Positions 1-57,721 are shown, counted from the first letter of the stretch. The stretch is 64,000 bases of DNA from an uncultured bacterium (GCA_965371445.1 CBDUYN010000036.1:100-64099); one strand, 5' to 3'. Notes: generated by a model not told the origin, from the sequence alone. Program-made: numbers and translations.

Positions 1-6054
<6,054 letters not shown>

Positions 6055-6058
<4 letters not shown>

Positions 6059-9000
6059 GCCGATCCTCCCTTCGGCACTCCGGAGCTCATCGTGGGTGAA
6101 GGCTCGAAAAGGGCTTCGAGACGCGCTGCCAGAACCTCGACGTGCGGTTGGGCGAGGATCGTGAAATGGTCTCCCCCGAGCGCCTCGACCGTCACCGGGC
6201 CTGCACACATAGAGCGCCACCTGGCGGCGGCCTGGCGGCGCCCTTCGGCGTCGAGCATCTCCGAGCAGAAAAGGGTCAGGCCTCCGGGGTAGGGCGACGG
6301 CCGATAACGGGTCATGGCCCGCAGACCGGCCGCCTGGACCTCGATCAGACGCCGGATCTGGTGGGTGCGGACGTCGACGGGAAAAAGCCCCGTGGCGTGC
6401 GCCTTCTCCAGGACGTACGGGATCCGTGCCTCAGGCTCCAAGGCCCGCAGCTCCTCTTTTTCGATCACCAGCTTCCCGCCTCCCAGATCGCGGATCAGCA
6501 GATCCAGAATCTCCAGGTCGTCCGGATCAGAAGTCTCGGGATCCAGCAGCAGGGTGTCGATCAACGCCAGGGTGGGGGACGAGCCGCGGGTCCTCAGTTG
6601 CGCGGCCATCTCGAAGGCCAAGAGGCCACCGAAGCACCATCCCAGAAGCCGCGTGGGCTCCGCCAGGCCCTGCTCGTCGACGATTTCAAGATAGGCGGCG
6701 GCCATCTCGGCGATGTCGTCGACGACCGCGCCGTGGCCGTCGAGCCCCAAAGCCTGAAAGCCGTAGACCGGTTGCTGCGGCCCCACGGTGCCGGCCAGCT
6801 CCTGGTAGGAGAAGACCGTGCCGCCGACCGCGTGAAAACAGTAGAGCGGCGGCTCCCGGCCCGCCGTCCGCAGCGCCACCAGACTGCCGGCCACGGAGCC
6901 TTCCGGGGGCTGGAACATCTGCTCCACGCGAGTCTCAGCCGCGGCTTGGTCACCGCGCAGCCGATCCGTGAGCAGCGCCCGCCCGGCGGCCGACAGACGA
7001 CGACGCCGGGCCGCTACCGCGGCCCGGCGTTCGGCGAGACGATCGCGCTTTCCCCGCGAGCTCAGAGCAGCGGTTTCGGCCGGCGCATCGGCAGCGGCCG
7101 AAGTCGGCGCGGATTCGAGACGGCCGTCGGGGAGATAACGCACCTGCGCCGGTTCACCCCCCGCTTCGCTGCCCTGCCGGAAGCGTCGCCCCCAGACACC
7201 GATCGGCACCGGCCGGCCGCTCGCATCCATCACTCGCGGTTGCTCCGCCCGTCGCGCCGGCCACTCGACGAGGAGCTGATGACGCTCGGAGGGCGCCAGC
7301 AGGGGCAGGGCCGAGAGGGGGCGGGAGACGTCCTCGGCGACGGCTGCGAGCATCGCCCGCAGATGGCGGATCAGGCGCAGGACGGTGGTGCGGTCGAAAA
7401 GGTCGCTGTTGTACACCAGGTCGGCACGCACCGCGCCGTCGCGACTTGCCCAGTTGAGAGCCAGGTCGAAATCGGCGGCGCCCTCGTTCCTCCTCGCCGG
7501 GGTGAGATGCAACGGGCGCAAGGTCAGCGCCGGCAGATCCCAGGACGCCTTCGGGACGTTGTCGAGAGCCACCATGACTTGAAAGAACGGCGTCTGCGAC
7601 ATGTCGCGTTCCGGCCGCAACTCCTCCACCAGTTTCGTGAACGGCAGATCCTGGTGGGCATAAGCCCCCAGGGTCACCTCGCGCACCCGCGCCAGAAGCT
7701 CGGCGACCGTCGGATCGCCCTTCAAGTCGACGCGCAGCACCAGCGTGTTGACGAAAAGTCCCACGAGGTCTTCGAGCTCGGCGCGGTTGCGTCCCGCGAC
7801 CGGAGCTCCGAGCAGCAGGTCGTCTTGCCCTGTATAACGCCACAGCAAAACGTCCATCACCGCGACCGTCACCATGAAAAGAGTGGCGTCACAGTCCTCG
7901 GCGAGCTTGTCCAGGGCTTCTCGCGACACCTCCGAGAGGTGGACTTGGCCGACACCGCCGCTGTAGTCCGGCGCGGATGAGCGCAAGCGGTCGGTGGGCA
8001 ACGACAACGTCCCGCTCGCCCCGGCGAGTTGGCGGCGCCAGTAGTCGATCTCTTCCTCCAGCACCTTGCCGGTGAGCCACTGCCGCTGCCAGAGCGCGAA
8101 GTCAGCGTATTGGAATTCGAGCTCCGGTAAGTGCAGCGGCTGGGTACCGGAAAACGCCAGATAATGGTCGATCAGCTCGTCGTTGAAGGTTCCTCTCGAC
8201 CAGCCGTCCGAAATGATGTGGTGCATGTTGACCAGCAACAAGTGTTCGGCACCGCCGAGGTCGACGAGCAAGGTGCGCAAGAGGTGACCGCGGCTCAGAT
8301 GGAACGGCCGGCACGCTTCCCGGTCGAGAAGACTCCGGCCGACGGTTTCACGCCGCGCTTCGGGCAACCCTCTGAGGTCGACCACCGACAACTTCGCCGC
8401 GCCTTCCGCGTCGATCACCTGAAACATCTGACCTTCCGCGATCAAGAAATGTGTACGTAGAGTTTCGTGACGACCCACGATGCCGGCGATGCTGGCGGCA
8501 AGCTTGGTAACATCGAGGTTTCCCAATATCGAAAAGCCTATCGATATGTTGTACGCCGAATTGTCCGGCGTCAACTGGTCAAGGAAAAAAATACGCTCCT
8601 GGGCAAAAGAGAGCGGCAGCCGGCCGTCGGCCGGACGCGGCACCTTGAAGAGCTGAGAATCCGCGGCGATCCGCTTCGTCTCGCGCAGATACGCCATGAT
8701 CTCGTCCTTACGGCGGCTCAGCTCGGAACGGAGCTCCGCGTCGAGCACCCCCTTTTGCGCGCGGATCCGCAGCCGCTCCCGCTCTTCGTCGAGCGTGATC
8801 CCGACCCCGGCCCGGCGCAGTTGGCTCAAGAAACGGGTGGTCGGCAAATCTCCGTGGGTGACATCCTCCCGCGGCACGACGCTGCGATCCAAGAGGCGCT
8901 CGGTCGAACCCAAAACGTGCGACACCATGTTCGCGAGCCGCTTGTACGTGAACGCGCTGTCGACGTCGCGCAACATCAGCCGGAGCGCAAGAAGGCCCCG

Positions 9001-9900
9001 CGTCGCCAGAAAAACGTCGTGCACGTCGTCCGACACGGTGAACGCCGGACGCACTCTTCGGTACCCGGAGAGAAACGCCTGACGAAGAACCGCGAAATCG
9101 TCGCGCTCGATGAGAAAGGTAAGCGGGGTCGCGATGTCGTTGAGGTGAAAGCTCCAGGCACAATCCGTAAAATCGATCGGGCAAAACGCCTCGCCGTTCC
9201 ACAGGACGTTCTCGGTGAAGGTGAAGTCGGCATGGGTCAGGCCGTATCCGTAGCTCTCGCGCTCGGCGTCGAAAAGGCGCCATTTACCACGAATCGCATC
9301 CGCCATGTCGTTGAGCCGCCGGAAGTCCTCCCGGGAGAGGAAGCGATCCCCGCCGGACGGCTGACGGAAGTCGTCCTCACCGATCAGGTCGGCGCAGCCG
9401 AGCTGCGGCCGCTCGAAGTCGTCCGGGACGTCGAACCGTCCGCCGTGGCGATGGATGCGCCCGAGCGTCTCGCCCAGCTTCGCGCATTGCTCCGCCGTGA
9501 TCGCCTCCGCCGTCAGATGCGTTCCCGCAATCCAACGAAAGAGCACGTAGTGCCAGACGCGTCCGTCGGCGGTCGTTTCCGAGGACAGCAGCTCGCCGTC
9601 ACGCCGCGGTATCGGTTCCTGAACCGTAAGCTTCTCTTCGGCGCGCAACGCCTGCAGCCAGCGTAGCTCCGATAACGTCGCCGCTGCCGAGTGGTGGGCG
9701 GTGGCGCGCAGAAAATATTCCCCCACTCCATCCGTGGCGCTGGCGGTGACGCGAAAGGACAGACCCGTCCGCGATTGTTGCACATCGACGCGAACGATGT
9801 GATCAAAGTCGTAATGGGTCAATATCGCCTCGGCGACACTTGTACGCGTACGCTGTTGGCGCCCACTTTCTGTGTTCTCAGGTTGTAGCTGTTCGAGCAT
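6055..9900 (-). CDS. Atypical NRPS protein: APH/homoserine-kinase-II-like phosphotransferase domain, TubC_N-type docking domain, C domain, A-domain remnant, and thioesterase with a Cys nucleophile; no carrier domain
   Basis: 1281-aa ORF with ATG at 9900, preceded by GAGGTGG. Kinase-fold motifs are GLTHADFTFTENVLW and PIDFTDCAWSFHLNDIA. The docking-like stretch is TRFLSQLRRAGVGITLDEERERLRIRAQKGVLDAELRSELSRRKDEIMAYL. The C domain carries LPLSFAQERIFFLDQ and MHHIISDGWS. After the C-A linker (SERHQLLVEW) only a short degenerate stretch follows: RVMDASGRPVPIGVWG...VRYLPDGRLE. The TE carries LYCFHAVGG, GWCFGG, LALIDT and GGDHFT. I found no GG(H/D)S carrier motif. Confidence 0.85.
6121..6888 (-). 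other. Type I thioesterase domain with a Cys-Asp-His triad
   Basis: LYCFHAVGG. GWCFGG at 6625-6642, where I confirmed codon TGC in the DNA. LALIDT (Asp). GGDHFT (His). Confidence 0.8.
7111..7290 (-). other. Degenerate adenylation-domain remnant
   Basis: The C-A linker SERHQLLVEW is joined directly to RVMDASGRPVPIGVWGRRFRQG...VRYLPDGRLE. This resembles the stretch YVLD..G.PVP.GV.GEL..GG...YRTGD..R...DG.LE of a normal A domain. Core motifs A1-A5, A9-A10 and the whole T domain are absent. Confidence 0.6.
7306..8628 (-). other. Condensation domain of the 6055..9900 protein
   Basis: LPLSFAQERIFFLDQ, MHHIISDGWS (8197-8223), YADFALWQRQW, PTDRLR, GLFVNTLVLR. Confidence 0.85.
8686..8847 (-). other. 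TubC_N-type (beta-hairpin) NRPS docking domain, here internal rather than N-terminal
   Basis: Residues about 352-405: LPTTRFLSQLRRAGVGITLDEERERLRIRAQKGVLDAELRSELSRRKDEIMAYLRE. This matches the pattern L..L...GV.L...G..L...A.KG.L..EL...L...K.EI..(F/Y)L as I remember it for this docking family. Confidence 0.55.
8881..9843 (-). other. APH / homoserine-kinase-II / RdoA-like phosphotransferase domain (residues about 20-340 of the 6055..9900 protein)
   Basis: Catalytic-loop-like HADFTFTEN (9208-9234). Metal-binding-like IDFTD (9163-9177). Upstream EYFLR...ELRWLQAL...FRWIAGTHL layout typical of the fold. Confidence 0.7.
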
Positions 9901-9938
9901 TCGCCACCTCGTTTCAAACTCCTCGCGTGCCGTCGCGA

Positions 9939-12900
9939 TCAGATCTCAAATTCCTCGACTTCCTCCGCCGCCAGGTCGTTCGCAGAGTGGTCGGCCGACG
10001 ACGGCTCCGCGCGGTCTGCCCAACGCGCCAGCTCGATTCTTTCCGCCAGCTCTTCCACGGTAGGCGCTTCAAAAAAAGCTCTCAGGGGAAGCTCGACGAG
10101 ATATTTTTTCCTTATCTTCGAGAAGAGCTGGGTCACCAGGAGCGAATGGCCGCCGACGTGGAAGAAGTTGTCCCGCACGCCGAGCGTTTCGATCGCCAGC
10201 AACTCACGCCAGAGCCCGACCAGCTCCTCCTCGAGCGGGGTCCGCGGTGCGACCGTGCTCTGCGCGTCGGCAGCGAGCTCGCGTACCGACAACGCCCGAC
10301 GATCCACCTTGCCGTTGGGGCTGAGCGGCAGCCCGTCGAGGGGAGCGAAAAAGGCCGGCACCATGTGCTCCGGCAACCTTTCGCGCAGAAACTCCCGCAA
10401 GGCCGCCGGTTCGACCTCCTCTCCCGGGCAGCTCACCAACCAGGCCACCAACTGTTGGTTCCCCGACGCCGTTTCGCGCATCACGACGACCGCCTGCTCC
10501 ACGGTCTCGTGCCGGCTGAGGGCCGTCTCGATCTCTCCCAGCTCGATGCGGAAACCCCGGAGCTTGACCTGGTGGTCGACGCGGCCGAGGAATTCCAGCT
10601 CGCCCTCCGTCGTGAAGCGCCCGAGGTCCCCGGTGCGGTAGAGACGCTCGTCCGTGGCGAACGGGTGGGGGAGGAAAGCCGTGGCCGTGCTCCGCGGATC
10701 GCTCAGGTAGCCGCGTCCCACGCCGATGCCGGCCACGAAGAGCTCTCCGGGCCGCCCGAACGGCACCGGAGAGAGGTCCGGAGCCAGGACGTAGAGCCGC
10801 AGGCTCAGCACCGGCCGGCCGATGGGAATCGTCCGCGCCGCGGCATCGACCGGGCCTCTCAGGACATGGTGAGTGACGTCGTCCGAGCACTCGGTGGGGC
10901 CGTAGGCGTTGACCAGGGGAATCCGCGGGAAGACACCGTGCCAGCGCCGTGCCAGCTCCACCGGCAGGGCCTCGCCGGTGGGCACCAGCCAGCGCAGCCG
11001 CGGCAGCGGCGACGGCACCTCCTCCTCGTCGGCGACCATCATCTGCATCATCGAAGGCACCACCTCGAGGATCGTGACGGCGTCCTCGCGGACCGCGGCG
11101 AGCAGCCGCGCCGGATCGTGCGCCACCTCGTCGGGGTAGATCACCACCCGGCCGCCGACCCAAAGCGCCGCCAGGAATTGCCAGATCGAGATGTCGAAGC
11201 ACTGCGAGGCGTTCTGGGCCACCCGGTCGCCGCTCTCGATGCCGAGGTCGAGGATCTTGGCCCGCAGGTGGTTGACCATGCCCCGCTGCTCGACCATGGC
11301 CCCCTTCGGCAAGCCGGTCGATCCGGAAGTGTAGAGCACGTAGGCCAGGTTCTCCGGACGGCCGCGGGCGGGCAGCGGCTCGGACGATTCCCCGGCCTCC
11401 TCCACGAGGTCCTCGAGCACCTGGACGCGGCACGAGGCCGGCTCCCCGAGGGCCTCGGTCAAGGACGACAGAAGCTCCCGCGACACCAGCACGAGCCCCG
11501 AGCCGCTGGCCCCGAGCACCTGACGATGGCGTCCGGCGGGATGGCGGGGATCGAGCGGCAGATAGGCGCCCCCGGCTTTCCAGATCGACAGCACGGCGAG
11601 GAGAAAGTCGATCCCGCGCTCGGCCAGGATCGTCACCACCGTCTCGCCGTCCACCCCCGCGTCGATCAACCGGCGGGCGACGGCGTTCGTCCGGCGGTCC
11701 AACTGACGGTAGGTCGCCCTCCGATCCTCGCAGACGGCCGCCACGGCCTCCGGCGTGGCGCCGGCCTGGCGGGCGAAGAGCTCGACGAAGGCCGCCGGAG
11801 CCTCGGCCGGAGGGGTCACGTTCCATTCCAGAAGCAGCTGGTGCCGTTCGGCGGGGCCGAGAAGGGAGAGCTCCCGGAGCCGCAAAGGGTCCTGAGACAG
11901 ACCGCTCAGCAGGTGGCCGAAGTGACCGAGGATCCTCAAGGCGGCCGTGTCCTCGAAAAGGCTCGCCTCGTAGCTGAGCTTCATCAGCAGGGCCGACTCG
12001 GGCACCACGTCGACGGTCAGGGGGTAGTTGGTGCGCTCGAAGACCCGCACGTCGCTCGGCCTCAGGTCCTCGTCCTCCTGGAGCGCGGCTCCCACGGGAA
12101 AGTTCTCGAACACCAGGATGTGATCGAAGAGAGGCTGCTCGGCCCCGAAGCCGCTCCAGAGCTGCACCCGCTCCAACGGGCTGTGCTCGTGCTCGCGCGC
12201 CTCCGCGTGCGCCGCCTGCTGGGCCGCCAGCCAGGGGAAACACTCCCCTTCCGCTTCCACGCGGGCCCGCACCGGGAGGGTGTTGATGAAAAGGCCCACC
12301 ATCGACTCGCGGCCCTCCGGGCCTGCCGAGCGGCCGGAGACGGTGGCGCCGAAGAGGACGTCGCGCCGGCCCGTGGTACCGGCCAGCAGCAAGCTCCAGG
12401 CCCCCTGCAACAGGGTGTTGAGGGTCAGAGAGTGCCGCGCCGCCACGGCGCGGAGCGCCTCGGTCGTCTCGGGGGCCAGGCGGGTCTCCCGCTGCCGGTA
12501 AGCGGCCAGGTCGCGGGTGTCGCCGCGGCGGCCCTCGGCGAGGAGCGTGGGGGTGGTGAAGCCCTCCAGGGTCGCCCGCCAGAACGCCTCGGTCTCCGCG
12601 AGGTCGTGCTCGCGGAGCCAGGCGACGTACGCCCGGTAAGGAGGGATCCCCGGCGGCTCCTGGCCCCGGTAGTACGCGAGGGCGTCCCGGAAGACCAGAC
12701 CCGACGACCAACCGTCGAGCAGCAGGTGGTGGTAGCTCCAGGCGAAGTGCCAGCTCTCCTCCCCCGCACGGATCAGGAGGATCCGCATCAGGGGAGCTTC
12801 GTCCAGATCGAAACCCCGGCGGATGTCGTCTTCGAGCTCGGCGTCCAGGCGCTCTCGCCGCTCGGCCGCCGACAGCTCCCTCCAGTCCTCCTCCCGCCAG

Positions 12901-15900
12901 GGGAGACGCGGCTCCTCCAGCACCAACTGCAGCGGCTCCTCGAGCCCTTCCCAGAGGAACGCCGTGCGCAGCACCGAATGGCGGCGGACCACCGACCGCC
13001 AGGCCCGACGCAGGCGCTCGGGGTCCAACGGCCCCCGAAGCGTCGCGCTGAGCTGCTCGACGTAGGTTCCCGAACCCGGCTCGTAGAGGGTGTGGAAGAG
13101 CATGCCCTGCTGCATGGACGTCAGCGGGTAGAGGTCCTCGACCGGACCGCGGGACGCCAACAGGGCGTCGAGCGACGTCTGATCGAGGTCCGCCAGCGGG
13201 AAGTCCGAGGGCGTGTGGCCCCCGAAGCCGACCGTGCGGCAGTGGTCGATCAGCGCGCGCAGTGACTCCAGGTACCCCCGGGCGAGCGTCTCCACGGTCG
13301 AGCGACGGTGCCGCGCCCCATGCTCCCAGCGCAGCCGCAGGCGGCCCGCCTGGACACCGCCGCTGACCTCCAGCAGGCTCTCCCTCAGGCCCCGTGAATC
13401 CGCCCGCGCACCCGACGCCTCCTCCGCCGGACGCCAGAACGAGGCCGACAGCGCCGTGTCCAGTTGTCCGAGGTAGTTGAAGATCACCTCCGGATCCGGC
13501 CGCGCGCCGAGCCGCTGCCGCGCCTCCGCGGCGCCCAGATAGCGCAGCACCCCGTAGCCGACGCCATGGTGGGGCACCGAGCGCAGCCGCTCCTTGACCG
13601 CCTTCAGGGTCTCTCCCGGGCCGCCCTCGGCCACCTCCAACGACACCGGGTAGAGGCTCGTGAACCAGCCCACCGTGCGAGAAAGGTCGAGGCCCCCGAC
13701 CAGCTCCTCTTCCCGGCCGTGACCCTCCAGCGCGAGGCGCAGCCCACGCTCGCCGGTCCACTTCCGGAAGGCCAGCACCAGGGCCGTCAGCAGCACCTCG
13801 TCGATGTTCGTGCGATAGACCGCCGGCACGTCGTAGAGCAGCGCCCGGGTCTCCTCCTCCGCGAGAGCCACCTCCACCTTCCGGGTCGTGGCCACGGTGT
13901 TCGGCGCCCGCGGGTCGTCCACCGGCAACGCGGCTCTGGCCCGCCCGGCCTCCGTCCAGAAGTCGAGCTCCTCGGCGAGGTCCCCCGAGCGGCCGAGCTC
14001 CTCGAGGGCCTGCGCCCAACGCCCGAACGACGCCGTCCGCGGCGGCAAGACCGGAGCCTCACCGCGCTCCAACTGCCGGTAGCAGCTCTCCAGGTCGGCC
14101 AGCAGGACGCGCCACGACACGCCGTCCACCGCCAGGTGGTGGATCACCCACAACAGGCGCTGTGCCCGCTCCGCGCCGAGATCCAGGAGCACCAGGCGCT
14201 GCAGGGCACCCCGCGAGGGGTCGAAGCCGCGGTGCGAAGCGTCCGCCACCGAGCCCAGGACCCCCGCCTGCCGATCGGACGGCACCCGCGAGAGGTCGAT
14301 CACGGTGCAGGGAGACGGACCTCCTTGCGCGCGGCTCTCCTGGTGCCAGGCTCCCGAGTCCTGGGCTCCCGAGTCCTGGAAGAAACGCAGACGCAGGGCG
14401 TCGTGGTGGAGCACCAGGACCTCCGACGCGGCGGCCAGCCGGCCGGCGTCGAGGCGCTCGACCGGCGCCAGCAGCACGGCCTGGTTGAAGTGCTGGTGGA
14501 CCGCGGAGCGCGACGCGAAGAAGGACTGCTGGATCGGCGTCAGGGGAACGGGACCGGTCACCGACGCCGCCTCGTCGCCGGCCGAGCCCGCGGCGACCGC
14601 CACCGCCGCCTGCTCGGCGACGGTGGGATTCTGGAAGACCTGCCGCGGGCTCAGCCGCAGCCCGGCGGCGCGCGCCTGCGACACCACCTGGATGCTGAGG
14701 ATCGAATCGCCGCCCACCTCGAAGAAGTTGTCGTGGACCCCGACGTCGCGCAGCCCCAGCACCTGTCGCCAGATCCCGGCCAAAAGCTCCTCCGCCGGAG
14801 TCGACGGGGCCACGAAGCCCGCCGTTTCCTCTTGCCCGGAAGGCGACGGCAGGGCCTTACGGTCCAACTTGCCGTTGGCGGTCAACGGGATGGCGTCGAG
14901 AAACATGAACGTCGACGGCACCATGTACTCCGGCAAGATGTCGCCCAAAAAGACTCGCAGGTCCTCGACGCGCGGCGCCGCCTCCGGCGTGCGCGGCACC
15001 ACGTAGGCCACCAGGCGTCCCGCACGCACCGCCGCCGGCCCGCTGGGTCCGTCGATCACAGCCACCGCGTCGCGCACCCCTTCATACCGGGTGAGAGCCG
15101 TCTCGATCTCTCCCAGCTCCACGCGAAATCCACGGATCTTGACCTGCGCGTCCTGGCGGCCGAGGAACTCCAGGTTCCCGTCGTTGAAGAAACGGGCCAG
15201 ATCCCCCGTGCGGTAGAGCCGATCTCCCGGATGCTCCGCGAAGGGATCCGGAACGAAACGCTCCGCGGCGAGCGCCGGAGCGCTGGCATAGCCGCCGCTC
15301 AGACAATGCCCTCCGATACACAGATCACCCGGCACGCCGATCGGACAGGGGCCCATCCGGGGGTCCAGGACGAGGTAGCGGGCGTTCTTCATGGGCCGGC
15401 CGTAGGGAATGCTCGGCCACGAGGGATCGACGCGTTCGATCGGGTAGAAGTTCGACCATACGGTACATTCCGTCGCTCCACCCAGGCTGATCACTCGCGC
15501 CCGCGGAAAGCTGGCCCGCACCTGATCCGGAAGCGGCACGGGAATCCAGTCGCCGCTCAAGAAGACCCGACGCAGCGTCTCGGACCCCTCCCCCGGGCTC
15601 GGGAAAAGAGGTGCCAGCTGCTGCAGCGCCGCCGGTGCGGAATCCCAGAAGGTGATCCCGTCCTCCTGGAGCAGACGGACCAGGCGCTCCGGCTCTTCCA
15701 AATCCTCCCCGGAAGCGATTCGGATCGAGCCGCCGGCGGCGAGCATTCCGAAGATGTCGTAGACCGACAGGTCAAAGCTCAAGGAGGCGACGAAGAGCAT
15801 TCGGTCGCCGGGGCCCACCTCGAAGGTCCGATTGACCCATGCGATCAGGCGCATCGCCGGCTCGTGGCGGACCATGACTCCCTTGGGCTTGCCGGTCGAG

Positions 15901-17879
15901 CCCGAGGTGAAGATCACGTAAGCGAAATTCCGCGGCTCTACCGGGCAGGGGGGCTCGACGCTGCGGCGGCTGAGGGCTTCCGACTCCCGATCCAGAAGCA
16001 CACGCTCCGTCGTTTCCCCGAGCTCCGCCGGAGCGTACCCCGTCCGGCTCACCAGCAGGCGGACCCCGGCGTCTTCGATCATGAACCGCAACCGTTCGGC
16101 CGGCAGCTTGCCGTCCAGAGGCACGTAGCCGCCTCCCGCCTTGAGGGCCGCCAAAACGGCGACGACCATCTCCGGCGAGCGCGGCAGGCAGACCCCGACC
16201 ATCTCCCCGGGTTGAAGCCCCAGGGAAAGCAGGTGACGGGCCAACTGGTTCGCCTTCGCCTCCAGCTCGCCATAGCTCAGCCGCTGCTCCTCGAACAACA
16301 GCGCCGTGGCGTCGGGCGTGCGCCTGGCCTGCGCCGCGAAGAGGTCGTGCAGGCAGCCGGTTCCCCGCCATGCCTGACGCGTGTCGTTCCACTCCGTCAA
16401 GACCTGGTGGCGCTCGCCCGCGCTCAGCAGGGAGAGCTCGCCGAACCGCAGGCCGGGATTTTCCACCAGGCTCAAAAGCACGTTCTCGAAGTGACGCAGG
16501 AAGCGCCGCGGGGTCGTCGGCAGGAAGAGCACCCGGTTGTACACCAGGGTGCCCATGAGCTCTTCGCCGCGCTCTTCCAGCAGAAAGGTCAGGTCGAATT
16601 GAGCACCGCCCGTGCCGACGTCGATGACCGAAAAGGTCAGGTCTGGCAGACGAAACGTCGGGACGACCGCCGGCTGGTAGGAGAAGAGGACTTGAAACAG
16701 GGGAGTGTGGCTTTCGCTGCGCTCGGGATGGACCTCCCGGACGACCTGGCCGAAAGGCACCTCCTGGTTCGCCAGGGCGTCGAGCGTCGTCTGGTCGAGC
16801 CGCTTCAAAAGCTCCGAGAGCCGCGGGTCCCCGGAGAGGTCGGCGCGCAGAGCCAGCGTATTGAGCAAGAGCCCGACGACGTTTTCCAGCTCGGTCCGGT
16901 TGCGCCCGGCCACCGGGGTGCCCACACAGACCTCCCGCGCCCGCGTCCAGCGCCCCAACAACGCCGCAAAGGCGGTGAGGCAGAGGGTGAAAAGCGAGCT
17001 CCCGCTCTCCTGGCGCAGGCGAAGCAAGGCCTCGCGCAACGGCCCTGGGCAACGCCACAGGATCACCTCGCCGTCCAGGGCAACCACCGAAGGACGCGGC
17101 CGGTCCGTCGGCAAGCTCAGGACCGACGGCACCCCGGCGAGCTGCTCGCGCCAGTAGGCCAACTGGTCGTCGTAGGCGCCGCTCTCCAGTTGCCGCCGCT
17201 GCCAGCGCACGAAGTCGGCATACTGGATCTGCGAGTCGGGCAGCCGCGGCTCCTCGCCCGCCGCCAGGGCGCGGTAGACGGTGAGCAGCTCCCGGTAGAA
17301 GATCGCGTCGGACCAGCCGTCGGAGACCACGTGGTGCACGGCGCGCACGAGCACGTGCTCCTCGCGCCCCAGGCGGATCAGCAACAGGCGCAGCAGCGGA
17401 CCCCGGGACAGCTCGAAGGGGACGTTGGCCATGAGCCGGGCCAGGGGTTCCAGGCGGGCCTCGCGCCGCTCCGGCGGCAGGGCTTCGAGGGAGAGCACCG
17501 GCATCTCGAGGCGCATCACGTCCCGGACCTCCTGGAACGGTCCGTTCGCGCCTTCGCGGAGGATCGTGCGCAGGCTCTCGTGCCGGCCGACGACAATACC
17601 CAGGCCGCGCCGCAGGGCCGCGACGTCGAGGCGGCCGCGCAGCCGGGCCGCGGCGAGGATGACGTAAGCCGGGGAGCCCGGGTCCAACTGCTCCAGGAGC
17701 CACAGCCGGCTCTGGCCGTAGGAGAGGGGGACCTCCTCCCCGTCGCGCGGCGTGATCCGAAAGGCTTGCAGGGAACCCTCACCCGATCGCCCGGCCAGCT
17801 TCTTGAGCAGGAGTTGCCGCTTCGCCGGCGACAGCTTCTCCATGCGGCGGGCGATGTCTGATTTTTGAATCTCGCTCAT
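9939..17879 (-). CDS. Non-ribosomal peptide synthetase, C-A-T-E-C-A-T (two modules, the first epimerising)
   Basis: ORF 9939..17885. The track start at 17885 is TTG. ATG 17879 has AGGAG 6 nt upstream, so I prefer it. Motifs in order: LSYGQSRLWLLEQ and HHVVSDGWS (C); FAYVIFTSGSTGKPKG (A); DNFFEVGGDSILSIQ (T); HHLAVDGVSWRVL (E, about 14101-14160); HHLLLDGWS (C); LAYVLYTSGSTGLPKG (A); DNFFHVGGHSLLVTQ (T). The C-terminal tail is ...EEVEEFEI. Confidence 0.93.
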   Translation of the reverse strand: MSEIQKSDIARRMEKLSPAKRQLLLKKLAGRSGEGSLQAFRITPRDGEEVPLSYGQSRLWLLEQLDPGSPAYVILAAARLRGRLDVAALRRGLGIVVGRHESLRTILREGANGPFQEVRDVMRLEMPVLSLEALPPERREARLEPLARLMANVPFELSRGPLLRLLLIRLGREEHVLVRAVHHVVSDGWSDAIFYRELLTVYRALAAGEEPRLPDSQIQYADFVRWQRRQLESGAYDDQLAYWREQLAGVPSVLSLPTDRPRPSVVALDGEVILWRCPGPLREALLRLRQESGSSLFTLCLTAFAALLGRWTRAREVCVGTPVAGRNRTELENVVGLLLNTLALRADLSGDPRLSELLKRLDQTTLDALANQEVPFGQVVREVHPERSESHTPLFQVLFSYQPAVVPTFRLPDLTFSVIDVGTGGAQFDLTFLLEERGEELMGTLVYNRVLFLPTTPRRFLRHFENVLLSLVENPGLRFGELSLLSAGERHQVLTEWNDTRQAWRGTGCLHDLFAAQARRTPDATALLFEEQRLSYGELEAKANQLARHLLSLGLQPGEMVGVCLPRSPEMVVAVLAALKAGGGYVPLDGKLPAERLRFMIEDAGVRLLVSRTGYAPAELGETTERVLLDRESEALSRRSVEPPCPVEPRNFAYVIFTSGSTGKPKGVMVRHEPAMRLIAWVNRTFEVGPGDRMLFVASLSFDLSVYDIFGMLAAGGSIRIASGEDLEEPERLVRLLQEDGITFWDSAPAALQQLAPLFPSPGEGSETLRRVFLSGDWIPVPLPDQVRASFPRARVISLGGATECTVWSNFYPIERVDPSWPSIPYGRPMKNARYLVLDPRMGPCPIGVPGDLCIGGHCLSGGYASAPALAAERFVPDPFAEHPGDRLYRTGDLARFFNDGNLEFLGRQDAQVKIRGFRVELGEIETALTRYEGVRDAVAVIDGPSGPAAVRAGRLVAYVVPRTPEAAPRVEDLRVFLGDILPEYMVPSTFMFLDAIPLTANGKLDRKALPSPSGQEETAGFVAPSTPAEELLAGIWRQVLGLRDVGVHDNFFEVGGDSILSIQVVSQARAAGLRLSPRQVFQNPTVAEQAAVAVAAGSAGDEAASVTGPVPLTPIQQSFFASRSAVHQHFNQAVLLAPVERLDAGRLAAASEVLVLHHDALRLRFFQDSGAQDSGAWHQESRAQGGPSPCTVIDLSRVPSDRQAGVLGSVADASHRGFDPSRGALQRLVLLDLGAERAQRLLWVIHHLAVDGVSWRVLLADLESCYRQLERGEAPVLPPRTASFGRWAQALEELGRSGDLAEELDFWTEAGRARAALPVDDPRAPNTVATTRKVEVALAEEETRALLYDVPAVYRTNIDEVLLTALVLAFRKWTGERGLRLALEGHGREEELVGGLDLSRTVGWFTSLYPVSLEVAEGGPGETLKAVKERLRSVPHHGVGYGVLRYLGAAEARQRLGARPDPEVIFNYLGQLDTALSASFWRPAEEASGARADSRGLRESLLEVSGGVQAGRLRLRWEHGARHRRSTVETLARGYLESLRALIDHCRTVGFGGHTPSDFPLADLDQTSLDALLASRGPVEDLYPLTSMQQGMLFHTLYEPGSGTYVEQLSATLRGPLDPERLRRAWRSVVRRHSVLRTAFLWEGLEEPLQLVLEEPRLPWREEDWRELSAAERRERLDAELEDDIRRGFDLDEAPLMRILLIRAGEESWHFAWSYHHLLLDGWSSGLVFRDALAYYRGQEPPGIPPYRAYVAWLREHDLAETEAFWRATLEGFTTPTLLAEGRRGDTRDLAAYRQRETRLAPETTEALRAVAARHSLTLNTLLQGAWSLLLAGTTGRRDVLFGATVSGRSAGPEGRESMVGLFINTLPVRARVEAEGECFPWLAAQQAAHAEAREHEHSPLERVQLWSGFGAEQPLFDHILVFENFPVGAALQEDEDLRPSDVRVFERTNYPLTVDVVPESALLMKLSYEASLFEDTAALRILGHFGHLLSGLSQDPLRLRELSLLGPAERHQLLLEWNVTPPAEAPAAFVELFARQAGATPEAVAAVCEDRRATYRQLDRRTNAVARRLIDAGVDGETVVTILAERGIDFLLAVLSIWKAGGAYLPLDPRHPAGRHRQVLGASGSGLVLVSRELLSSLTEALGEPASCRVQVLEDLVEEAGESSEPLPARGRPENLAYVLYTSGSTGLPKGAMVEQRGMVNHLRAKILDLGIESGDRVAQNASQCFDISIWQFLAALWVGGRVVIYPDEVAHDPARLLAAVREDAVTILEVVPSMMQMMVADEEEVPSPLPRLRWLVPTGEALPVELARRWHGVFPRIPLVNAYGPTECSDDVTHHVLRGPVDAAARTIPIGRPVLSLRLYVLAPDLSPVPFGRPGELFVAGIGVGRGYLSDPRSTATAFLPHPFATDERLYRTGDLGRFTTEGELEFLGRVDHQVKLRGFRIELGEIETALSRHETVEQAVVVMRETASGNQQLVAWLVSCPGEEVEPAALREFLRERLPEHMVPAFFAPLDGLPLSPNGKVDRRALSVRELAADAQSTVAPRTPLEEELVGLWRELLAIETLGVRDNFFHVGGHSLLVTQLFSKIRKKYLVELPLRAFFEAPTVEELAERIELARWADRAEPSSADHSANDLAAEEVEEFEI
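13250..14560 (-). other. Epimerisation domain
   Basis: It follows a GGDSI-type T domain. Motifs: PLTPIQQSFF, HHLAVDGVSWRVLLADL (about 14101-14160), EGHGREE, FNYLGQ. Confidence 0.85.
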
Positions 17880-17912
17880 CTTCAACTCCTGGCGTCAAGG
17901 CTCAGACCCCTG

Positions 17913-20366
17913 CTATTCGTAGCGCAGGGCCTCGGAGGGCTCCACGGCCAGTGCCTTGCGGATCGGCATGAACGTCGCGACGAGCGTCACCAGAAAGAGC
18001 GGCGGGACGATCAGGACGAAAGCGATCGGATCGGTCGGTGCCACGTCGTAGAGCAGGCTCGACATGACGCGGCTCAAAGCGAAAGCCGCGCCGACGCCGA
18101 TCGTGATTCCAATCACCATGTCGAGGAGCGACTGCTTGAGCACCAACACGACGACCTCTCCCTTCCTGGCTCCCAACGCCACACGGACTCCGATCTCACG
18201 GGTCCGACGGCTGGCCGAATACGACATGACGCTGTAGATCCCCAGCGTCGTCAAGACGACCGCGGCGCCGGCGAAGAGCAGCATGAGGATCGTCCTGAAA
18301 CGTATCCCGCTCACGTCTTCCGCCATGCTCTCCTCCATGGTGATGGCCTCGAACACGGCACGTGTCGGATCGATTTTCCGGACCACGTCGCGAACCATTT
18401 CGACCATGGTGGCCTTGTCGGTTTCCGTACGGACGAAGACGTTGACCTGCGCCGCGGGGAGCTGGTCGAAGGTGACGTAGCAATCGCGGAGCATCTCGGA
18501 ATGAGAACGTCCCAGGCCCCGCATGCGCGCGTTGGAGACGACGCCGACGACCGTACGCCACCCATCCTGGCCGAAGACGTTGACCACACGTTTCCCGATC
18601 GCGCTCTCGCCCGGCCACAGCTCGTCGGCAATCGCCTTGCTGATGACGATGGTCGCGAGGCCGTCGGCGCGGTCCGTCTCGTCGAGCATCCGCCCCGCGA
18701 GCAGTCGCAGCCCGATCTTTTCCGTCGCTCCCGGGGTCACGAAGTGGATCCAGGTGTGCAGACGGCTGTAGGACGGATCCGCTTCCTTGCCCTCCGGGAC
18801 CATGTACAGAAACGTCGTGCTCGATCCCGGCAGCCCCATGCCCCAGAGGCCGGCGTCGATCACCCCCGGTAGCGCGGAGACACCCTCCTCCAGGTTGCGG
18901 AAGAAGACCCGAGCGATCTCCTCGTCCTCCTCGTAACGCGGGCCGTCGAGGATCAGCCGCATGTACACGAGGTTTTCGGTGTCGAAGCCGTAATCGGTCT
19001 TCGTGAACTCGTAGATGCTTCGGGCCATGAGACCGGCGCCGACCAGGACGGCGACGGAGAGGGCAACCTGCAGGACGACCAGGCCACGGCGCAAGAGGTT
19101 ACGCTCCCGGCCGCCGCCGCCCGTACCCGCACCACTCGGCCGCAGGAGGTCGTGGAAGCTGACCTTGGCGGCACGGATCACCGGCACCAGGCCGAAAAGC
19201 AGCGTCGTGGCCAGAGCCAGGAGCAGGGTGACCAGGAACACGCTCTTGTCGACCGACACCTCGGCGAAGCTGTACAGGTTCAAGGGATCGCTGGCGAACA
19301 CCAGCTTGACACCGGCGTAGGCCAGGAAGAAACCCACCAAGCCGGCGGCCAGCGCGATCGACACGCCCTCCGCCATCGCTTGATGGACGAAGCTCCGGCG
19401 CCCGGCGCCCATGGCCATCCGGACGGCGAATTCCCGGAGACGCTCGACGAAACGGGCGAGCAGCAGAAGCGTCACACTGATGCAGCTCAGGAAGAAAACC
19501 AGGCCGGACCCGAGGCCGAGCACCGTGACGGTGTCGTTTAACCGGCCAAATTGGGTACGCAGGTCCAAAAACGAGGTCACGCGCGCCTCGACGTTCTTGT
19601 TGGTGTCGGGATATTCGTTCTGCAAAGCGATCGACACCGCCCTCATACCGGCGTGCGCCTGCTCGACCGTGACACCCTCGCGGAGACGTCCGACGACGAC
19701 CGACGTGTAGAAGCGGCGGTCCTCGACGAACCCTGGCGACCCCTCGACGGCACTCCGCCGATAGGGCACCACGACTTCCATGGGCTCATAGCGGAGCCAG
19801 CGGGTCTTCTGCACCATGACCCCCACGACTTCGTAGGGATTGCCTCCCAGGGCGATCGACTGGCCGACGATGTCCGGGTCGCCGCCGTATTCCGACTGCC
19901 AGAAACCGTAGCTCAAGACGACGACCGGGATGCCGGTCGGCGGCTGGTTGTCGGCCTCGGTCAGCCGCCGTCCGAGGGCCATCTCCACGTCGAGCGTGTC
20001 GAAGAAGTACGGATCGACAAACATCATCATGACGCGTTCGGCGCCGTCGTCCCGCTGGACCGACGACGGGAAGTTCGTAAAGGCCGCCAGACCGTCGAAG
20101 AACTCCACGCCGCGTTCTTTCCAGTCCTGGATGTCGACGTAGGAAATCGCCTCGCGATTATGGATCGGCTCGGGACCCCTTCTCCACATCATGATGATGC
20201 GCTCGGGGTCTCGGTACGGCACCGAGCCGAAATAGATGGACTGCGCGAGAGACAGGATCATCGTTACGAATCCGATTCCCAGGGCCAGGATGAGGACCAC
20301 CAGAGAGGTAAACCGAGGGCGTCTGGCAAAGGATCTGAGACCACTGCGGATGTCTTTGCTTAGCAT
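17913..20366 (-). CDS. ADOP-family (duplicated FtsX/MacB-type) ABC transporter permease
   Basis: ORF 17913..20381. The track start is TTG at 20381. ATG 20366 is preceded by GAGGAAGGTGAAA. The N-terminus MLSKDIRSGLRSFARRPRFTSLVVLILALGIGFVTMILS...VPYRDPERI is the typical ADOP/MacB-permease head. The roughly 820-aa length fits two FtsX-type TM bundles, and the protein ends ...ALAVEPSEALRYE. No ATPase gene is adjacent. Confidence 0.82.
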   Translation of the reverse strand: MLSKDIRSGLRSFARRPRFTSLVVLILALGIGFVTMILSLAQSIYFGSVPYRDPERIIMMWRRGPEPIHNREAISYVDIQDWKERGVEFFDGLAAFTNFPSSVQRDDGAERVMMMFVDPYFFDTLDVEMALGRRLTEADNQPPTGIPVVVLSYGFWQSEYGGDPDIVGQSIALGGNPYEVVGVMVQKTRWLRYEPMEVVVPYRRSAVEGSPGFVEDRRFYTSVVVGRLREGVTVEQAHAGMRAVSIALQNEYPDTNKNVEARVTSFLDLRTQFGRLNDTVTVLGLGSGLVFFLSCISVTLLLLARFVERLREFAVRMAMGAGRRSFVHQAMAEGVSIALAAGLVGFFLAYAGVKLVFASDPLNLYSFAEVSVDKSVFLVTLLLALATTLLFGLVPVIRAAKVSFHDLLRPSGAGTGGGGRERNLLRRGLVVLQVALSVAVLVGAGLMARSIYEFTKTDYGFDTENLVYMRLILDGPRYEEDEEIARVFFRNLEEGVSALPGVIDAGLWGMGLPGSSTTFLYMVPEGKEADPSYSRLHTWIHFVTPGATEKIGLRLLAGRMLDETDRADGLATIVISKAIADELWPGESAIGKRVVNVFGQDGWRTVVGVVSNARMRGLGRSHSEMLRDCYVTFDQLPAAQVNVFVRTETDKATMVEMVRDVVRKIDPTRAVFEAITMEESMAEDVSGIRFRTILMLLFAGAAVVLTTLGIYSVMSYSASRRTREIGVRVALGARKGEVVVLVLKQSLLDMVIGITIGVGAAFALSRVMSSLLYDVAPTDPIAFVLIVPPLFLVTLVATFMPIRKALAVEPSEALRYE

Positions 20367-20377
20367 TTTCACCTTCC

Positions 20378-21543
20378 TCAAGTTGGAAAAGAAGAGATCT
20401 TCCGAAGCCGCGCCTCGCGTTCGTGGCCGAAAGCCGGGTTGACGGTACAGGTCGAGCCCTCCGCGGCCAGCTCCGCGTCGGTGCAGACACCGCAGAAAGT
20501 GCAGGGCACGATGTCCTCAAGACGGCCTTCGCTCACCTTGCGGGGCAGCTCCGGATCGGCGATCAACGCGCGGCCCATGGCCACCAGGTCGATTTTACCC
20601 GCCGCCAGGGCGCTCTCGGCGAGCGGTGGCGGTATCCGGCCGCAGGCGACGACCGGGATGGAGACGGCCCGGCGGATCTCTTCGGCGTAGGGCAAAAGCC
20701 CGCCCTCCGGCCAGCTCATGGGGTCGACCCGGACCTCGCCGACCAGGGAGACCGAGATGTCGAGGACGTGGACCCCGGCCTCCTCGAGCCATTTCGCGAC
20801 CTGCCGCGTCTCCCCGAGGGTGATGCCGTCGGCAAGCGGCTCAAAGCCCTCCACGCACCGGCATTCGACGGCGCTCAGGCGGCAGAGCAGCGGGTAGCTC
20901 GTGCCCACTCGCCGCTGGACCGCCGCCACGACCTCGAGGAGGAAGCGGGCACGGTTCTCGAGCGTGCCGCCGTACTCGTCGCGGCGGTGGTTGTAGGTTG
21001 GGGAGAGGAATTGGGAGAGGAGATAGCCGTGGGCGGCGTGCAGCTCGACGCCGTCGAAGCCGGCCATCCGGACGCGGGCCGCGGCCGCGGCGAAGCGTTC
21101 GACCAGCTCGGGGATCTCGTCGGCGCGCAGCTCGCGGGGCGTCTCGCCGAAGTGGTTGGGGATCGGCGAAGGGGCCACGGGCTGCTCGCCGGTGATCATC
21201 GAGGTGGCCTTGCGGCCGGCGTGGTGGAGCTGCAACACCACGGCGGCCCGGGCGCCGCGGACGGCGTGGGCCAGCTTCCGCAGGCCGGGCAGGAACTCGT
21301 CGCCGTCGGCGCGCAACTGGCGCGGCGTCAGGTGTCCCCGCGGTGCCTCGATCGAGGTCGCCCCCACCAGCACCAGGCCGGCGCCGCCCTCGGCCCGCGC
21401 CCGATACGCCTCGACCATGCGCTCGCTCACCTGCCCCGACGGCTCCGCAAAGCCGCAGTCCATGGGGGCCATCACCATGCGGTTCCTGAGCTTCAGGCGA
21501 CCGCAGGTGAAGGCGGAGGTCAGGTGGGGGAAGGTTGGACGGC

Positions 21544-55212: not shown

Positions 55213-55230
55213 CGCGACGGCTTCCAAGGT

Positions 55231-56265
55231 CTATTCCACGGTCCGCAAGTCGACGTAGCCGGGGTAGTCCTGGATGTGGGACAGGTCGTTCTCGAGGACC
55301 GCCACGTCGCCGCGCCGCTCGATTTCCTTGAAGCCGGCGAAGCGGTAGGTGACCACCATCAGCCGGTTGCGGCCGGTGGAGACGAGCTCGGCCCGTAGCC
55401 GGACGCCGGCGCCGCGTGCCCGCTTCATCAGGTATCCGAGGAGGATCGAGCCGACGCCCCGCGACATCACCCGGCACGACATCAAGAGCAGCTTGAGCGT
55501 CCAGACAACCTGTCCCAGCTCCACGAGAGCGAGGCCGATCTTGCCGTAGGTGCCGTACTTGTCCTCGAGGCTCGCGACCAGCAGCAGGTGGTCGTCCGAC
55601 TGGCGACACGCGTCGAGCTTCTCGTAGGAGTAGGTGACGCCGGTCGAGTTGAGCTGATGGGTGCGCACCGTCAGCTCCTCGGCACGCTGCAAGTCCTCTT
55701 CGCTCGCCGGAGCGATGGTGAAACGCATGTCGAGGGAGGCGAGGAACCCCTCGTCGGGTCCTTCAAATGCCTCCTGGACCTTGTTGCGCGTGGCGTCGGC
55801 CTGGTACATCCGGCGCCGGAGGGCCGACTCGTCGGTCAAGAAGCGCGGTATGAGCTCCGGCCGCTCTGCGAGCCCGGGAACTTCCTCAGCGTCGTAGACG
55901 AGCACCTCCGGCAGGGCGTAAGCCACCTCTTCGCGCTCGAAGGGCTGGTCGTCGACGAACGCGACGGCGTCGAGGCCGACGTTGATCGACTCGGCGATCC
56001 TCTTGATACCGGCCGACTTCGCCGACCAGCTGATCTGCGGATAGAGGAAGTAATGATCGAGGCCGAGGCGAGCCAGGGCCTCCATCGCCATCTCGGGGTC
56101 GTTCTTGCTGGCGATCGAGCACAGGATGCCGCGCTGGTCGAGCGCCTCCAAGGTCTCGCGGGCGCCGTCGCGCAGGCGCAGCTCGTCGCCCTCGATCAGC
56201 GTGCCGTGCCACAGGGTTTCGTCGAGGTCCCAGACCAGGACCTTGACGACGCGTTCTTTCTCCAT
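55231..56265 (-). CDS. FkbH-like protein (HAD-superfamily IIIC phosphatase / glyceryl-ACP loading enzyme)
   Basis: 344 aa. HAD motif I is VWDLDETLWHG. HAD motif III-like is AFVDDQPFERE. The C-terminal half carries LLLMSCRVMSRGVG, the conserved Cys motif of the FkbH-like domain. Its neighbours are an ACP, an acyl-CoA DH and a 3-hydroxyacyl-CoA DH. Confidence 0.82.
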   Translation of the reverse strand: MEKERVVKVLVWDLDETLWHGTLIEGDELRLRDGARETLEALDQRGILCSIASKNDPEMAMEALARLGLDHYFLYPQISWSAKSAGIKRIAESINVGLDAVAFVDDQPFEREEVAYALPEVLVYDAEEVPGLAERPELIPRFLTDESALRRRMYQADATRNKVQEAFEGPDEGFLASLDMRFTIAPASEEDLQRAEELTVRTHQLNSTGVTYSYEKLDACRQSDDHLLLVASLEDKYGTYGKIGLALVELGQVVWTLKLLLMSCRVMSRGVGSILLGYLMKRARGAGVRLRAELVSTGRNRLMVVTYRFAGFKEIERRGDVAVLENDLSHIQDYPGYVDLRTVE

Positions 56266-56289
56266 GTCCGTCCTCCCTCCCTGGCGATC

Positions 56290-57465: not shown

Positions 57466-57475
57466 GGTCCTCCTC

Positions 57476-57721
57476 CTATGCGGACGCGCCTCTCTTGCGC
57501 TCGACGAGGGCGTCGATGGCGTTCAGGCTCCGGAAGTTGTCGAGGTCCAGGTCCTCGTCCTCGACCGTGATGCCAAACTCCTTCTCGACGAACTGGACGA
57601 GTTGCATGGCCAGGAGCGAATTGACGAAGCCGAGGGCGAAGATGTCCTCGTCGGCCGCAAGCTCGTGGTTGCGCAGGAAGCGGGCGAGGAACTGCCTGGT
57701 CTTGGTCTTGCGGTCGTCCAT
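57476..57721 (-). CDS. Discrete acyl carrier protein (FkbJ/ZmaD-like)
   Basis: 81 aa and acidic. The candidate phosphopantetheinylation site is LGFVNSLLAMQLV. It sits between the two dehydrogenase genes with gaps of 10-12 nt. Confidence 0.78.
   Translation of the reverse strand: MDDRKTKTRQFLARFLRNHELAADEDIFALGFVNSLLAMQLVQFVEKEFGITVEDEDLDLDNFRSLNAIDALVERKRGASA

Follow-up and report, generated by a model that had tools for sequence, protein, structure and literature searches.

What does a kinase domain do when it is built into the front of an NRPS (non-ribosomal peptide synthetase) subunit? The question is raised by a single open reading frame (ORF) of 1281 codons on the minus strand, positions 6055-9900, of a 64,000-nucleotide stretch of DNA from an uncultured bacterium (GCA_965371445.1, CBDUYN010000036.1:100-64099). 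This stretch, referred to as the window, is nearly the whole of a 64,197-bp contig and holds a large hybrid polyketide synthase (PKS)/NRPS cluster on the minus strand. The protein under study, the focal protein, carries an aminoglycoside phosphotransferase (APH)-family kinase followed by a docking domain (Dock), a condensation (C) domain, relics of adenylation (A) and thiolation (T) domains, and a thioesterase (TE). The favoured answer, to which a probability of about one half is assigned, is that the ORF encodes a genuine single NRPS subunit of a family in which an APH kinase placed before the docking domain performs on-line O-phosphorylation, and that this copy is dead for elongation, with a kinase that may be impaired. 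The features of the gene and of the adjoining docking tail are as follows.

6055..9900, minus strand: focal ORF, 1281 amino acids (aa), in the order APH, linker, docking domain, C, A/T relics, TE (ORF and Pfam)
9904..9910, minus strand: Shine-Dalgarno sequence GAGGTGG, preceding the ATG at 9900-9898
8866..9900, minus strand: APH-family kinase domain, aa 1-345 (Pfam, match to PDB 6ef6, AlphaFold2 model and Foldseek)
9208..9234, minus strand: catalytic loop HADFTFTEN, aa 223-231 (family form H-x-D-L-x-x-x-N)
9163..9177, minus strand: IDFTD, aa 242-246, the DFG-equivalent motif with the Mg-binding Asp (alignment)
8671..8844, minus strand: TubC_N-type (β-hairpin) docking domain, aa 353-410 (Pfam and AlphaFold2 model)
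7270..8622, minus strand: Condensation domain, aa 427-877 (Pfam E value 2e-100, profile positions 4-456 of 456)
6871..7269, minus strand: eroded A-T region, aa 878-1010 (collinear motif relics, no Pfam A or T match)
7189-7236, minus strand: A6 relic RPVPIGVWG (collinear with A-domain core motifs)
7114-7143, minus strand: A8 relic RYLPDGRLE (collinear with A-domain core motifs)
6952-6996, minus strand: LSAAGRALLTDRLRG, a possible T core with Ser changed to Ala (aligns to LGGHSLLA)
6106..6870, minus strand: Thioesterase domain, aa 1011-1265 (Pfam match over aa 1018-1262, E value 2.8e-26)
6625-6642, minus strand: TE nucleophile motif GWCFGG, with Cys (motif)
6163-6177, minus strand: TE His motif GGDHF (motif)
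9942..9965, minus strand: C-terminal docking tail EEVEEFEI of the upstream subunit (gene 9939-17885), the presumed ligand of the focal docking domain

Four domains of the focal protein are supported by Pfam, from the N- to the C-terminus the APH kinase, TubC_N, Condensation and Thioesterase, and the matches are strong and far above chance level. The APH family (PF01636) matches residues 42-284 with an E value of 1.1e-18 and 68.3 bits against a curated cut-off of 23.2, and TubC_N (PF18563) matches residues 356-407 with an E value of 4.7e-13 and 49.5 bits against a cut-off of 26. An earlier interpretation made from the DNA alone (the sequence-only reading) had proposed this kinase-dock-C-TE order, which the four matches bear out, as well as the APH-like N-terminus, with which both PF01636 and the fold described below agree. 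It had also held that A and T domains are missing; a Pfam search found neither AMP-binding nor PP-binding in the focal protein with the threshold relaxed to E <= 0.1, and a phmmer search for a T domain was likewise blank. The motifs it quoted were all located: HADFTFTEN at residues 223-231, IDFTD at 242-246 and HHIISDGWS at 8203-8223 in the C domain (HHIISDG, residues 560-566), where HHxxxDG is intact.

The AlphaFold2 model, which covers residues 1-412 and was computed from an input alignment of 21 sequences, has a predicted local distance difference test score of 85.7. It shows a bilobal kinase, a disordered linker at residues 342-347 and then the docking fold. The top Foldseek matches, all with probability 1.00, are 6EF6, AmiN, the homoserine kinase 2PPQ, YtaA and APH(9), that is, the APH/choline-kinase fold. 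The (S)-1-amino-2-propanol kinase 6EF6 is the best PDB match by sequence (E value 1.8e-17, residues 20-312) and also by structure (target-normalised TM score 0.81). The amicoumacin resistance kinase AmiN ranks second structurally, with a phmmer E value of 3e-4; NCBIfam reports a weak homoserine-kinase similarity, and comparison of ComG with the focal kinase gave no match at E <= 0.01. In the catalytic loop H223 and the catalytic D225 are kept, D243 is present within IDFTD, and R65 and E78 of the N-lobe align with an invariant or near-invariant Arg and Glu of the family.

Relatives of this N-terminal arrangement were sought in an exhaustive HMMER search of residues 1-420 against 1.84 billion representative proteins, which returned 2541 relatives at E <= 1e-3; it was used instead of a homologue search with the same residues and with an alignment, which yielded a few stand-alone kinases only and did not recover the query's own protein. 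Besides the focal protein itself, the top hits (E values from 2e-48 to about 1e-31) are nearly all long proteins matched unbroken over residues ~20-408 at their N-termini. Among the best 150 matches, 24 long proteins align in this way and continue into C-A-T and further domains, and several top matches are fragments that end at contig ends. Pfam and window-derived queries showed the relatives to be APH-Dock-C-A-T proteins that run on for as many as two more modules and a TE. When one genome per species was scanned, 22 fused loci emerged, all of them in Acidobacteriota/Thermoanaerobaculia metagenome-assembled genomes (MAGs), several of which hold two or three. In total, about 45 proteins and loci begin with APH-Dock-C, and wherever the source is named it is an Acidobacteriota/Thermoanaerobaculia MAG. 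Look-ups of identical sequences for the window proteins returned no record, and a metagenome scan with the focal N-terminus as query found no relative.

The sequence-only reading knew of no such fusion and worried that it might be an assembly chimera. The first point holds for the literature that was searched, in whose full texts no description of an APH-type kinase fused before an NRPS docking domain was found; in sequence space, however, the fusion is a recurrent family under purifying selection. The chimera is refuted: ~45 independent assemblies, long-read ones among them, show the APH-linker-Dock-C junction in the same collinear form. A kinase-free Dock-C-TE product from an internal start was also considered and rejected: family-wide, no start-capable codon or ribosome-binding site (RBS) is conserved before the docking domain, and the TTG at this place in the focal gene has only a badly spaced GGAG. 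Thus, the fused protein is the product.

In the 21-sequence alignment H223, D225, D243 and E78, together with many structural residues, are invariant, and N230 and R65 are at least 90% conserved. Among the other fused members, each one whose motif was retrieved has the loop G-L-I-H-x-D-L-x-x-x-N, and so do the stand-alone relatives. Pairwise Nei-Gojobori ratios of non-synonymous to synonymous substitution rates (dN/dS) were calculated between related loci for 23 pairs. For the APH domain they range over 0.17-0.47, apart from two pairs that each include L006 (0.59 and 0.63), similar to the 0.17-0.62 of the adjacent C domain. These values indicate that the kinase is a working part of the family, under purifying selection and constrained like the C domain. 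Two members, P0004 (context L035) and P0005 (context L034), are terminal proteins with a deletion of the A core like that of the focal protein; their A domains are reduced to relics, and their kinases deviate at just 1 of 60 conserved columns, which argues that the kinase is retained independently of elongation. A separate case is P0010 (873 aa), in which the C motif reads HPIAADRWS with the second His lost; it is the most deviant in the C domain (18/105) and its kinase motifs are canonical.

The position of the kinase is as regular as its motifs. The docking domain follows it, in the model as an α-β-β-α-α fold with a helix at 354-363, strands at 369-373 and 376-380, and helices at 388-411. 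It shares Pfam family, fold and an acidic partner tail with the TubC_N/β-hairpin docking domains (PF18563; PMC6195595). Canonical TubC_N domains occupy the extreme N-terminus of a subunit, whereas the focal one is internal, starting at about residue 353 and preceded by a 350-aa kinase. The expected ligand lies on the subunit upstream, which has the order C-A-T-E-C-A-T (E, epimerization) and terminates in AAEEVEEFEI directly after its last T domain; the focal ATG at 9900 is 38 nt past the stop codon of that gene. At every locus for which upstream sequence is available, the fused gene directly follows a subunit that ends with a T domain and a short acidic tail. EEGEL/EEGEI-type tails occur on the upstream subunit in 16 related loci, and EEIEI is also seen; docking domains of this type canonically bind such a tail. 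Because the expected ligand of the docking domain directly follows the last T domain upstream, the fusion tethers the kinase beside the chain-delivering carrier domain. The tail itself was rejected as the kinase substrate, as the tails have no conserved Ser, Thr or Tyr.

The same observations could describe a kinase fold that aids docking and leaves the product unmodified, for instance by gating in response to ATP or by serving the upstream T domain as a platform. At subunit junctions the kinase is always the domain immediately preceding the docking domain, the flanking modules share no consistent substrate residue, and in L005 two consecutive subunits (755-5191 and 5250-11942) both begin with APH-Dock-C, the tail REEGEL of the first presumably serving the second. 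Such a regulatory role is given a slim chance, for the catalytic residues are invariant in ~45 sequences, the constraint equals that of the C domain, and the upstream tails offer no conserved Ser/Thr/Tyr phosphorylation site. Moreover, other junctions of the same clusters in L011 and L018 dock via a plain docking domain without a kinase. Because only some junctions there have one, the kinase is stage-specific rather than a general requirement of docking.

According to the favoured reading, the family kinase would perform ATP-dependent O-phosphorylation of a hydroxyl on a carrier-bound intermediate, or on the product during assembly, and would do so at the point of hand-over between subunits, where the docking domain tethers it. 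The purpose would most plausibly be to keep the molecule inert inside the cell, as a pro-drug or for self-protection, and the fused kinase would be an in-cis counterpart of the stand-alone AmiN, ComG, Vph/Cph and CalQ. Of two hypotheses in the sequence-only reading, the first, on-line O-phosphorylation for protection or as a pro-drug step, is in this analysis the best reading, and an unproven one. In the window, the focal protein would act as a termination subunit whose elongation function is gone, and a chain ending in a residue like 2,4-diaminobutyric acid (Dab) on the upstream T domain would be released in trans by the Cys-thioesterase or by the C domain.

Several observations weigh against this reading, the first of which concern the substrate. 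A-domain codes were taken from a MAFFT alignment anchored on a fragment of GrsA, as pairwise extraction was unreliable, and the amino-acid labels given to them (Dab-like, His-like) are putative assignments after published codes. At the junction the chain arrives from a module that is Dab-like in the window (DIWEVTADD), L012 and L035, His-like (DSALIAEVW) in L014, L016, L021, L022 and L034, and Val-like in L003 and L004. It is Ser in L002 and Thr in L006 and L009, and in L011 and L018 the unit before the junction is a ketosynthase-acyltransferase-ketoreductase-T (KS-AT-KR-T) module. The module after the junction is just as variable across loci. A uniform target at residue -1 or +1 was therefore rejected, there being no shared A-domain code. 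Because APH-Dock-C units that are 70-80% identical sit between different residues, the target is not simply one of these two, and because the flanking residues are not consistently hydroxylated, the target hydroxyl cannot be named. The subgroup with HGDLQxxN mostly follows a hydroxyl-bearing unit, a weak trend that is confounded by shared ancestry. A code pair that recurs among these loci is DLYDFSLVW followed by DIWEVTADD in the window (9939-17885) or by DVWELTADD in L035 (2-9988), in both cases preceding a protein without an A domain; DLFDFSLVW precedes the APH junction in L018.

The second point is the lack of a partner enzyme. AmiN-AmiO and CalQ-CalL include a reactivating phosphatase, whereas none for pro-drug reactivation was found among the annotated window genes and scanned flanks, each cluster being only partly visible. 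The third is that the closest stand-alone homologues (L023-L033) are not adjacent to NRPS genes, so the ancestor may have been a metabolic rather than a resistance kinase. Kinase/phospho-lyase pairing of these relatives was rejected, a class-III aminotransferase being adjacent in only 1 of 11 loci (L032).

The last group concerns the focal kinase itself. The focal kinase and docking domain differ at 20 of the 69 positions with 90% or higher conservation elsewhere, compared with 0-11 in other members, and are 26-33% identical to every other member, compared with 35-86% for the others among themselves. The changes include N230E, G248A, G250S and Y254N. The column of the Mg-binding Asn is occupied by E230 and the Asn stands one residue further on (N231), whereas the other relatives, fused and stand-alone alike, all have an Asn five residues after the catalytic Asp wherever the loop motif was retrieved, which covers all but L006 and one reading frame of L021. 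In view of these deviations, the low identity and a G+C content at third codon positions (GC3) of 0.79, the focal kinase could be catalytically dead; having diverged further than any other family member, it may have reduced activity or none. Despite this divergence, the focal C domain is 40-50% identical to its relatives.

The substrate observations bear also on the second hypothesis of the sequence-only reading, that phosphorylation turns a hydroxyl into a leaving group. The kinase would phosphorylate a β-hydroxyl of the carrier-bound chain, and the C domain or the TE would eliminate the phosphate or cyclise the chain, following the logic of the class III-V lanthipeptide kinases with their lyases and of the CurM sulfotransferase-TE pair. 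PF01636 kinases do act in this manner in class V lanthipeptides (PMC7794033). APH-Dock-C moves as a conserved unit, and the units before the HGDLQxxN subgroup usually bear a hydroxyl (Thr in L006, Ser-like in L008, a KR-reduced ketide in L011 and L018). The nucleophile of the focal TE is a Cys, and Cys thioesterases are linked to strained-ring formation in obafluorin and sulfazecin. Nonetheless, the residue at the junction is Dab-, His- or Val-like in most loci, including the window, rather than a β-hydroxy residue; the C domains have an ordinary HHxxxD(G)WS, and the remaining TEs of the family use Ser. No phospho-Ser/Thr lyase domain or gene was found in the focal protein or in the Pfam-scanned window genes. 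Without a consistent β-hydroxy residue or a lyase the hypothesis is weakened, and it is considered decidedly unlikely.

The focal protein can be compared with several characterised systems. AmiN (PDB 6SUI/6SUM), ComG, Vph/Cph and CalQ share the APH/choline-kinase fold with the focal kinase; their genes lie in NRPS/PKS clusters, and the phosphate they place on a hydroxyl of the product serves self-protection or makes a protoxin. Each is a protein of its own, ~330-365 aa long, working on the completed product, whereas the focal kinase is covalently fused before a docking domain and a C domain. To our knowledge, phosphorylation in NRPS/PKS pathways comes only from stand-alone kinases that act on finished products. 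ComG, for example, is the stand-alone self-resistance kinase of the corramycin pathway, a myxobacterial NRPS/PKS cluster (PMC10996006). 6EF6, from a Mycobacterium smegmatis microcompartment, shares the HADL..N and IDFDDCGxGxYxYD-type motifs; it is a free-standing catabolic enzyme of a small amino alcohol, not connected with assembly lines, and its identity with the focal domain is ~24%. Class V lanthipeptide kinases belong to the same PF01636 family and act on peptide hydroxyls (PMC7794033), and the class III/IV synthetases LanKC/LanL have a kinase fused to other biosynthetic domains, as here. Lanthipeptide kinases, however, modify ribosomal peptides and always have a lyase partner, whereas in the present case no lyase was found and the substrates are presumed to be carrier-bound non-ribosomal chains. 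DolG carries a PF00069 kinase domain inside a cyanobactin macrocyclase and yields phosphorylated peptides (PMC12639078). It differs in kinase family, in belonging to a pathway for peptides made on the ribosome and modified after translation, in its placement between protease and DUF domains, and in its preference for Tyr. The same work calls phosphorylation rare in natural-product biosynthesis (PMC12639078). Thus, kinase fusions in lanthipeptide synthetases and a cyanobactin macrocyclase, and stand-alone APH-type kinases in NRPS/PKS clusters, are already known.

What, then, is the status of the focal copy? After the C-A linker LLVEW (residues 876-880) the relics follow in the order A6 RPVPIGVWG, A8 RYLPDGRLE and A10 RGKRDRLA. 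The A-domain vestige of about 60 aa described in the sequence-only reading is real, and larger than claimed, comprising these three relics and a possible T core. LSAAGRALLTDRLRG also resembles the LSPAKRxLL motif, which stands as LSPAKRQLLLKKLAG and MSPARKKLYELLKA at the N-termini of the subunits encoded by the genes ending at 17885 and 29157; it may be a remnant of a T core or an N-terminal motif of the LSPAKRxLL type. Because the A and T domains are reduced to relics, the elongation function of the focal protein would be lost. Of 102 conserved positions in the C domain 12 are changed, a number at the upper end of the family range. The closest PDB match of the TE is AB3403 of Acinetobacter baumannii (4ZXH, E value 1.3e-28), a C-A-T-TE protein with the same GWCFGG; its A and T domains are intact and, unlike the focal protein, it has no kinase or docking domain. 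All other TEs of the APH-NRPS family carry GWSxGG. Identity between the focal TE and these others is just 30-45%, suggesting a separate origin for the TE portion of the gene.

The composition of the gene deviates as well. Its GC3 is 0.79 overall, compared with 0.85-0.92 in five neighbouring genes, the four megasynthase genes among these being at 0.89-0.92, and it is 0.64 in the first 100 codons. The flanks are also somewhat low, with 0.84 in the last 100 codons of the upstream gene and 0.82 in the first 100 of the downstream gene. Taken together, the relic A and T domains, the Cys TE, the divergence of the kinase and the low GC3 point to either a foreign or mosaic origin of the gene or relaxed constraint. 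The sequence-only reading was silent on the spacing between the catalytic Asp and the Asn, the outlier status of the kinase, the Cys TE, the NRPS gene downstream and the low GC3.

A rival explanation would make the whole gene a decaying terminal subunit in which the kinase, and perhaps the C domain, no longer functions. A chain ending in a Dab-like thioester could release itself as a γ-lactam, or the TE alone could release it, and selection on the rest would be gone. The worn A and T motifs, the family maximum of 20 changes among 69 conserved kinase positions, the 12/102 deviations of the C domain and a GC3 of 0.79 against ~0.90 in the flanking genes all fit such decay. In L035, moreover, the same preceding A-code pair (DLYDFSLVW, then Dab-like) leads to the terminal P0004, which is also without A, T and TE. 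On the other side, the 1281 codons are uninterrupted, preceded by a good Shine-Dalgarno sequence and coupled to the next gene by ATGA, and the kinase retains its catalytic His, Asp and DFG-like Asp, the C domain its HHxxxDG and the TE both Cys and His. The kinases of P0004 and P0005 are near-canonical despite dead A domains, and a foreign origin could equally explain the low GC3. Decay of the entire gene is judged unlikely, while deserving serious attention.

The three proteins without A domains admit a further explanation, in which the kinase binds or makes a free amino alcohol (or its phosphate) that serves the C domain as a soluble amine nucleophile, so that the chain would leave with an amide at its C-terminus. 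Among characterised relatives the (S)-1-amino-2-propanol kinase 6EF6 is nearest, the focal protein, P0004 and P0005 are terminal APH-Dock-C proteins with no means to load an acceptor, and P0004, which ends without a T domain or TE, keeps HHxxxD and a canonical kinase. However, in most of the family a complete A-T follows the C domain, so the supply of an acceptor cannot be the general function. Descent of the three from a common A-less subfamily is not supported, the nearest relatives of P0004 and P0005 being full-length members; because they are not mutual nearest relatives, the A-less state looks like repeated decay. This explanation seems very improbable indeed. The favoured reading, a genuine subunit of a family with on-line O-phosphorylation, carries the qualification that interest attaches mainly to the family, of which the focal gene is a divergent and possibly degenerate representative.

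The setting of the gene in the cluster is summarised by the following features.

57734-58600, minus strand: 3-hydroxyacyl-CoA dehydrogenase (FkbH/I/J/K-like cassette)
57476-57721, minus strand: acyl carrier protein (ACP), 81 aa (FkbH/I/J/K-like cassette)
56290-57465, minus strand: acyl-CoA dehydrogenase (ACAD) (FkbH/I/J/K-like cassette)
55234-56289, minus strand: haloacid dehalogenase (HAD)-type protein (FkbH/I/J/K-like cassette)
55227 down to 21544, minus strand: four PKS/NRPS genes (window annotation)
17913-20381, minus strand: MacB-type permease (window annotation)
9939-17885, minus strand: upstream NRPS subunit, C-A-T-E-C-A-T (domain annotation)
2..6058, minus strand: downstream NRPS gene, A-T-C-A-T-C and onward, running off the window (ORF 2-6430, GC3 0.91)

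The downstream NRPS gene has its ATG at 6058-6056, overlapping the focal stop (ATGA), with an RBS GGGAGGA at 6064-6070, and its product begins with MNETALDLLVEWNDT. Its A-domain codes are DAWFLGHVV and DALWLGGTF. Because this NRPS gene begins on the focal stop, the TE-bearing gene is not the last megasynthase by gene order. The downstream gene could be the start of a second assembly line or the split-module partner of the focal C domain.

At the other end of the cluster, the cassette at 55234-58600 stands directly upstream of the first megasynthase, with an identical gene order in L036, L037 and L038, and resembles the FkbH/I/J/K-type routes by which hydroxymalonyl- or methoxymalonyl-ACP is supplied as extender unit. 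The window ACAD is 80-93% identical to proteins of Thermoanaerobaculia MAGs. Contig k141_478168 of ENA ERZ27264655 (L036; 485,632 bp) contains the start of a cluster with the same gene order: an ACAD (87% identical), a HAD-type gene and then a gene for a 3630-aa protein beginning with fatty acyl-AMP ligase (FAAL)-T-C-A-T-KS. The L036 cluster looks like an ortholog of the window cluster, in which the ortholog of the focal gene would be expected ~47 kb further on. The ACAD identities and this syntenic contig assign the DNA, by sequence, to an uncultured Thermoanaerobaculia-like Acidobacterium.

Within the window cluster an Old-Yellow-Enzyme-type reductase is also encoded. The minus-strand ORFs 39599-47053 and 44272-55227 overlap by 2.8 kb in different frames, and the first ~930 codons of the former have no domain match; the gene within it probably starts near 44260, just past the stop of the gene for a 3651-aa protein. 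MacB-type permeases and PvdQ-like penicillin amidases recur beside APH-NRPS genes (L007, L010, L014, L021, L034 and L035), which hints at export-coupled N-deacylation of lipopeptide precursors.

For the family as a whole, the tentative proposal, held at somewhat less than even odds, is that APH-Dock is an unrecognised class of in-line NRPS tailoring unit that phosphorylates carrier-bound intermediates at a set stage of assembly. If true, the tailoring domains embedded in assembly lines would gain a new type, a kinase at the docking interface. The combination of APH, TubC_N and C would then serve as a genome-mining handle for unexplored acidobacterial lipopeptide clusters, and the unit as a portable, dock-compatible module with which to install a phosphate, or a phosphate pro-drug mask, on engineered peptides. 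The arrangement also indicates that a β-hairpin docking domain tolerates a 350-aa N-terminal passenger, which is useful for NRPS engineering, and the focal copy illustrates the decay of a terminal module in which the kinase-dock-C core persists. For the organisms themselves, this proposal, if true, would mean that the lipopeptides of a whole group of uncultured Thermoanaerobaculia are phosphorylated, or are pro-drugs that bear a phosphate transiently.

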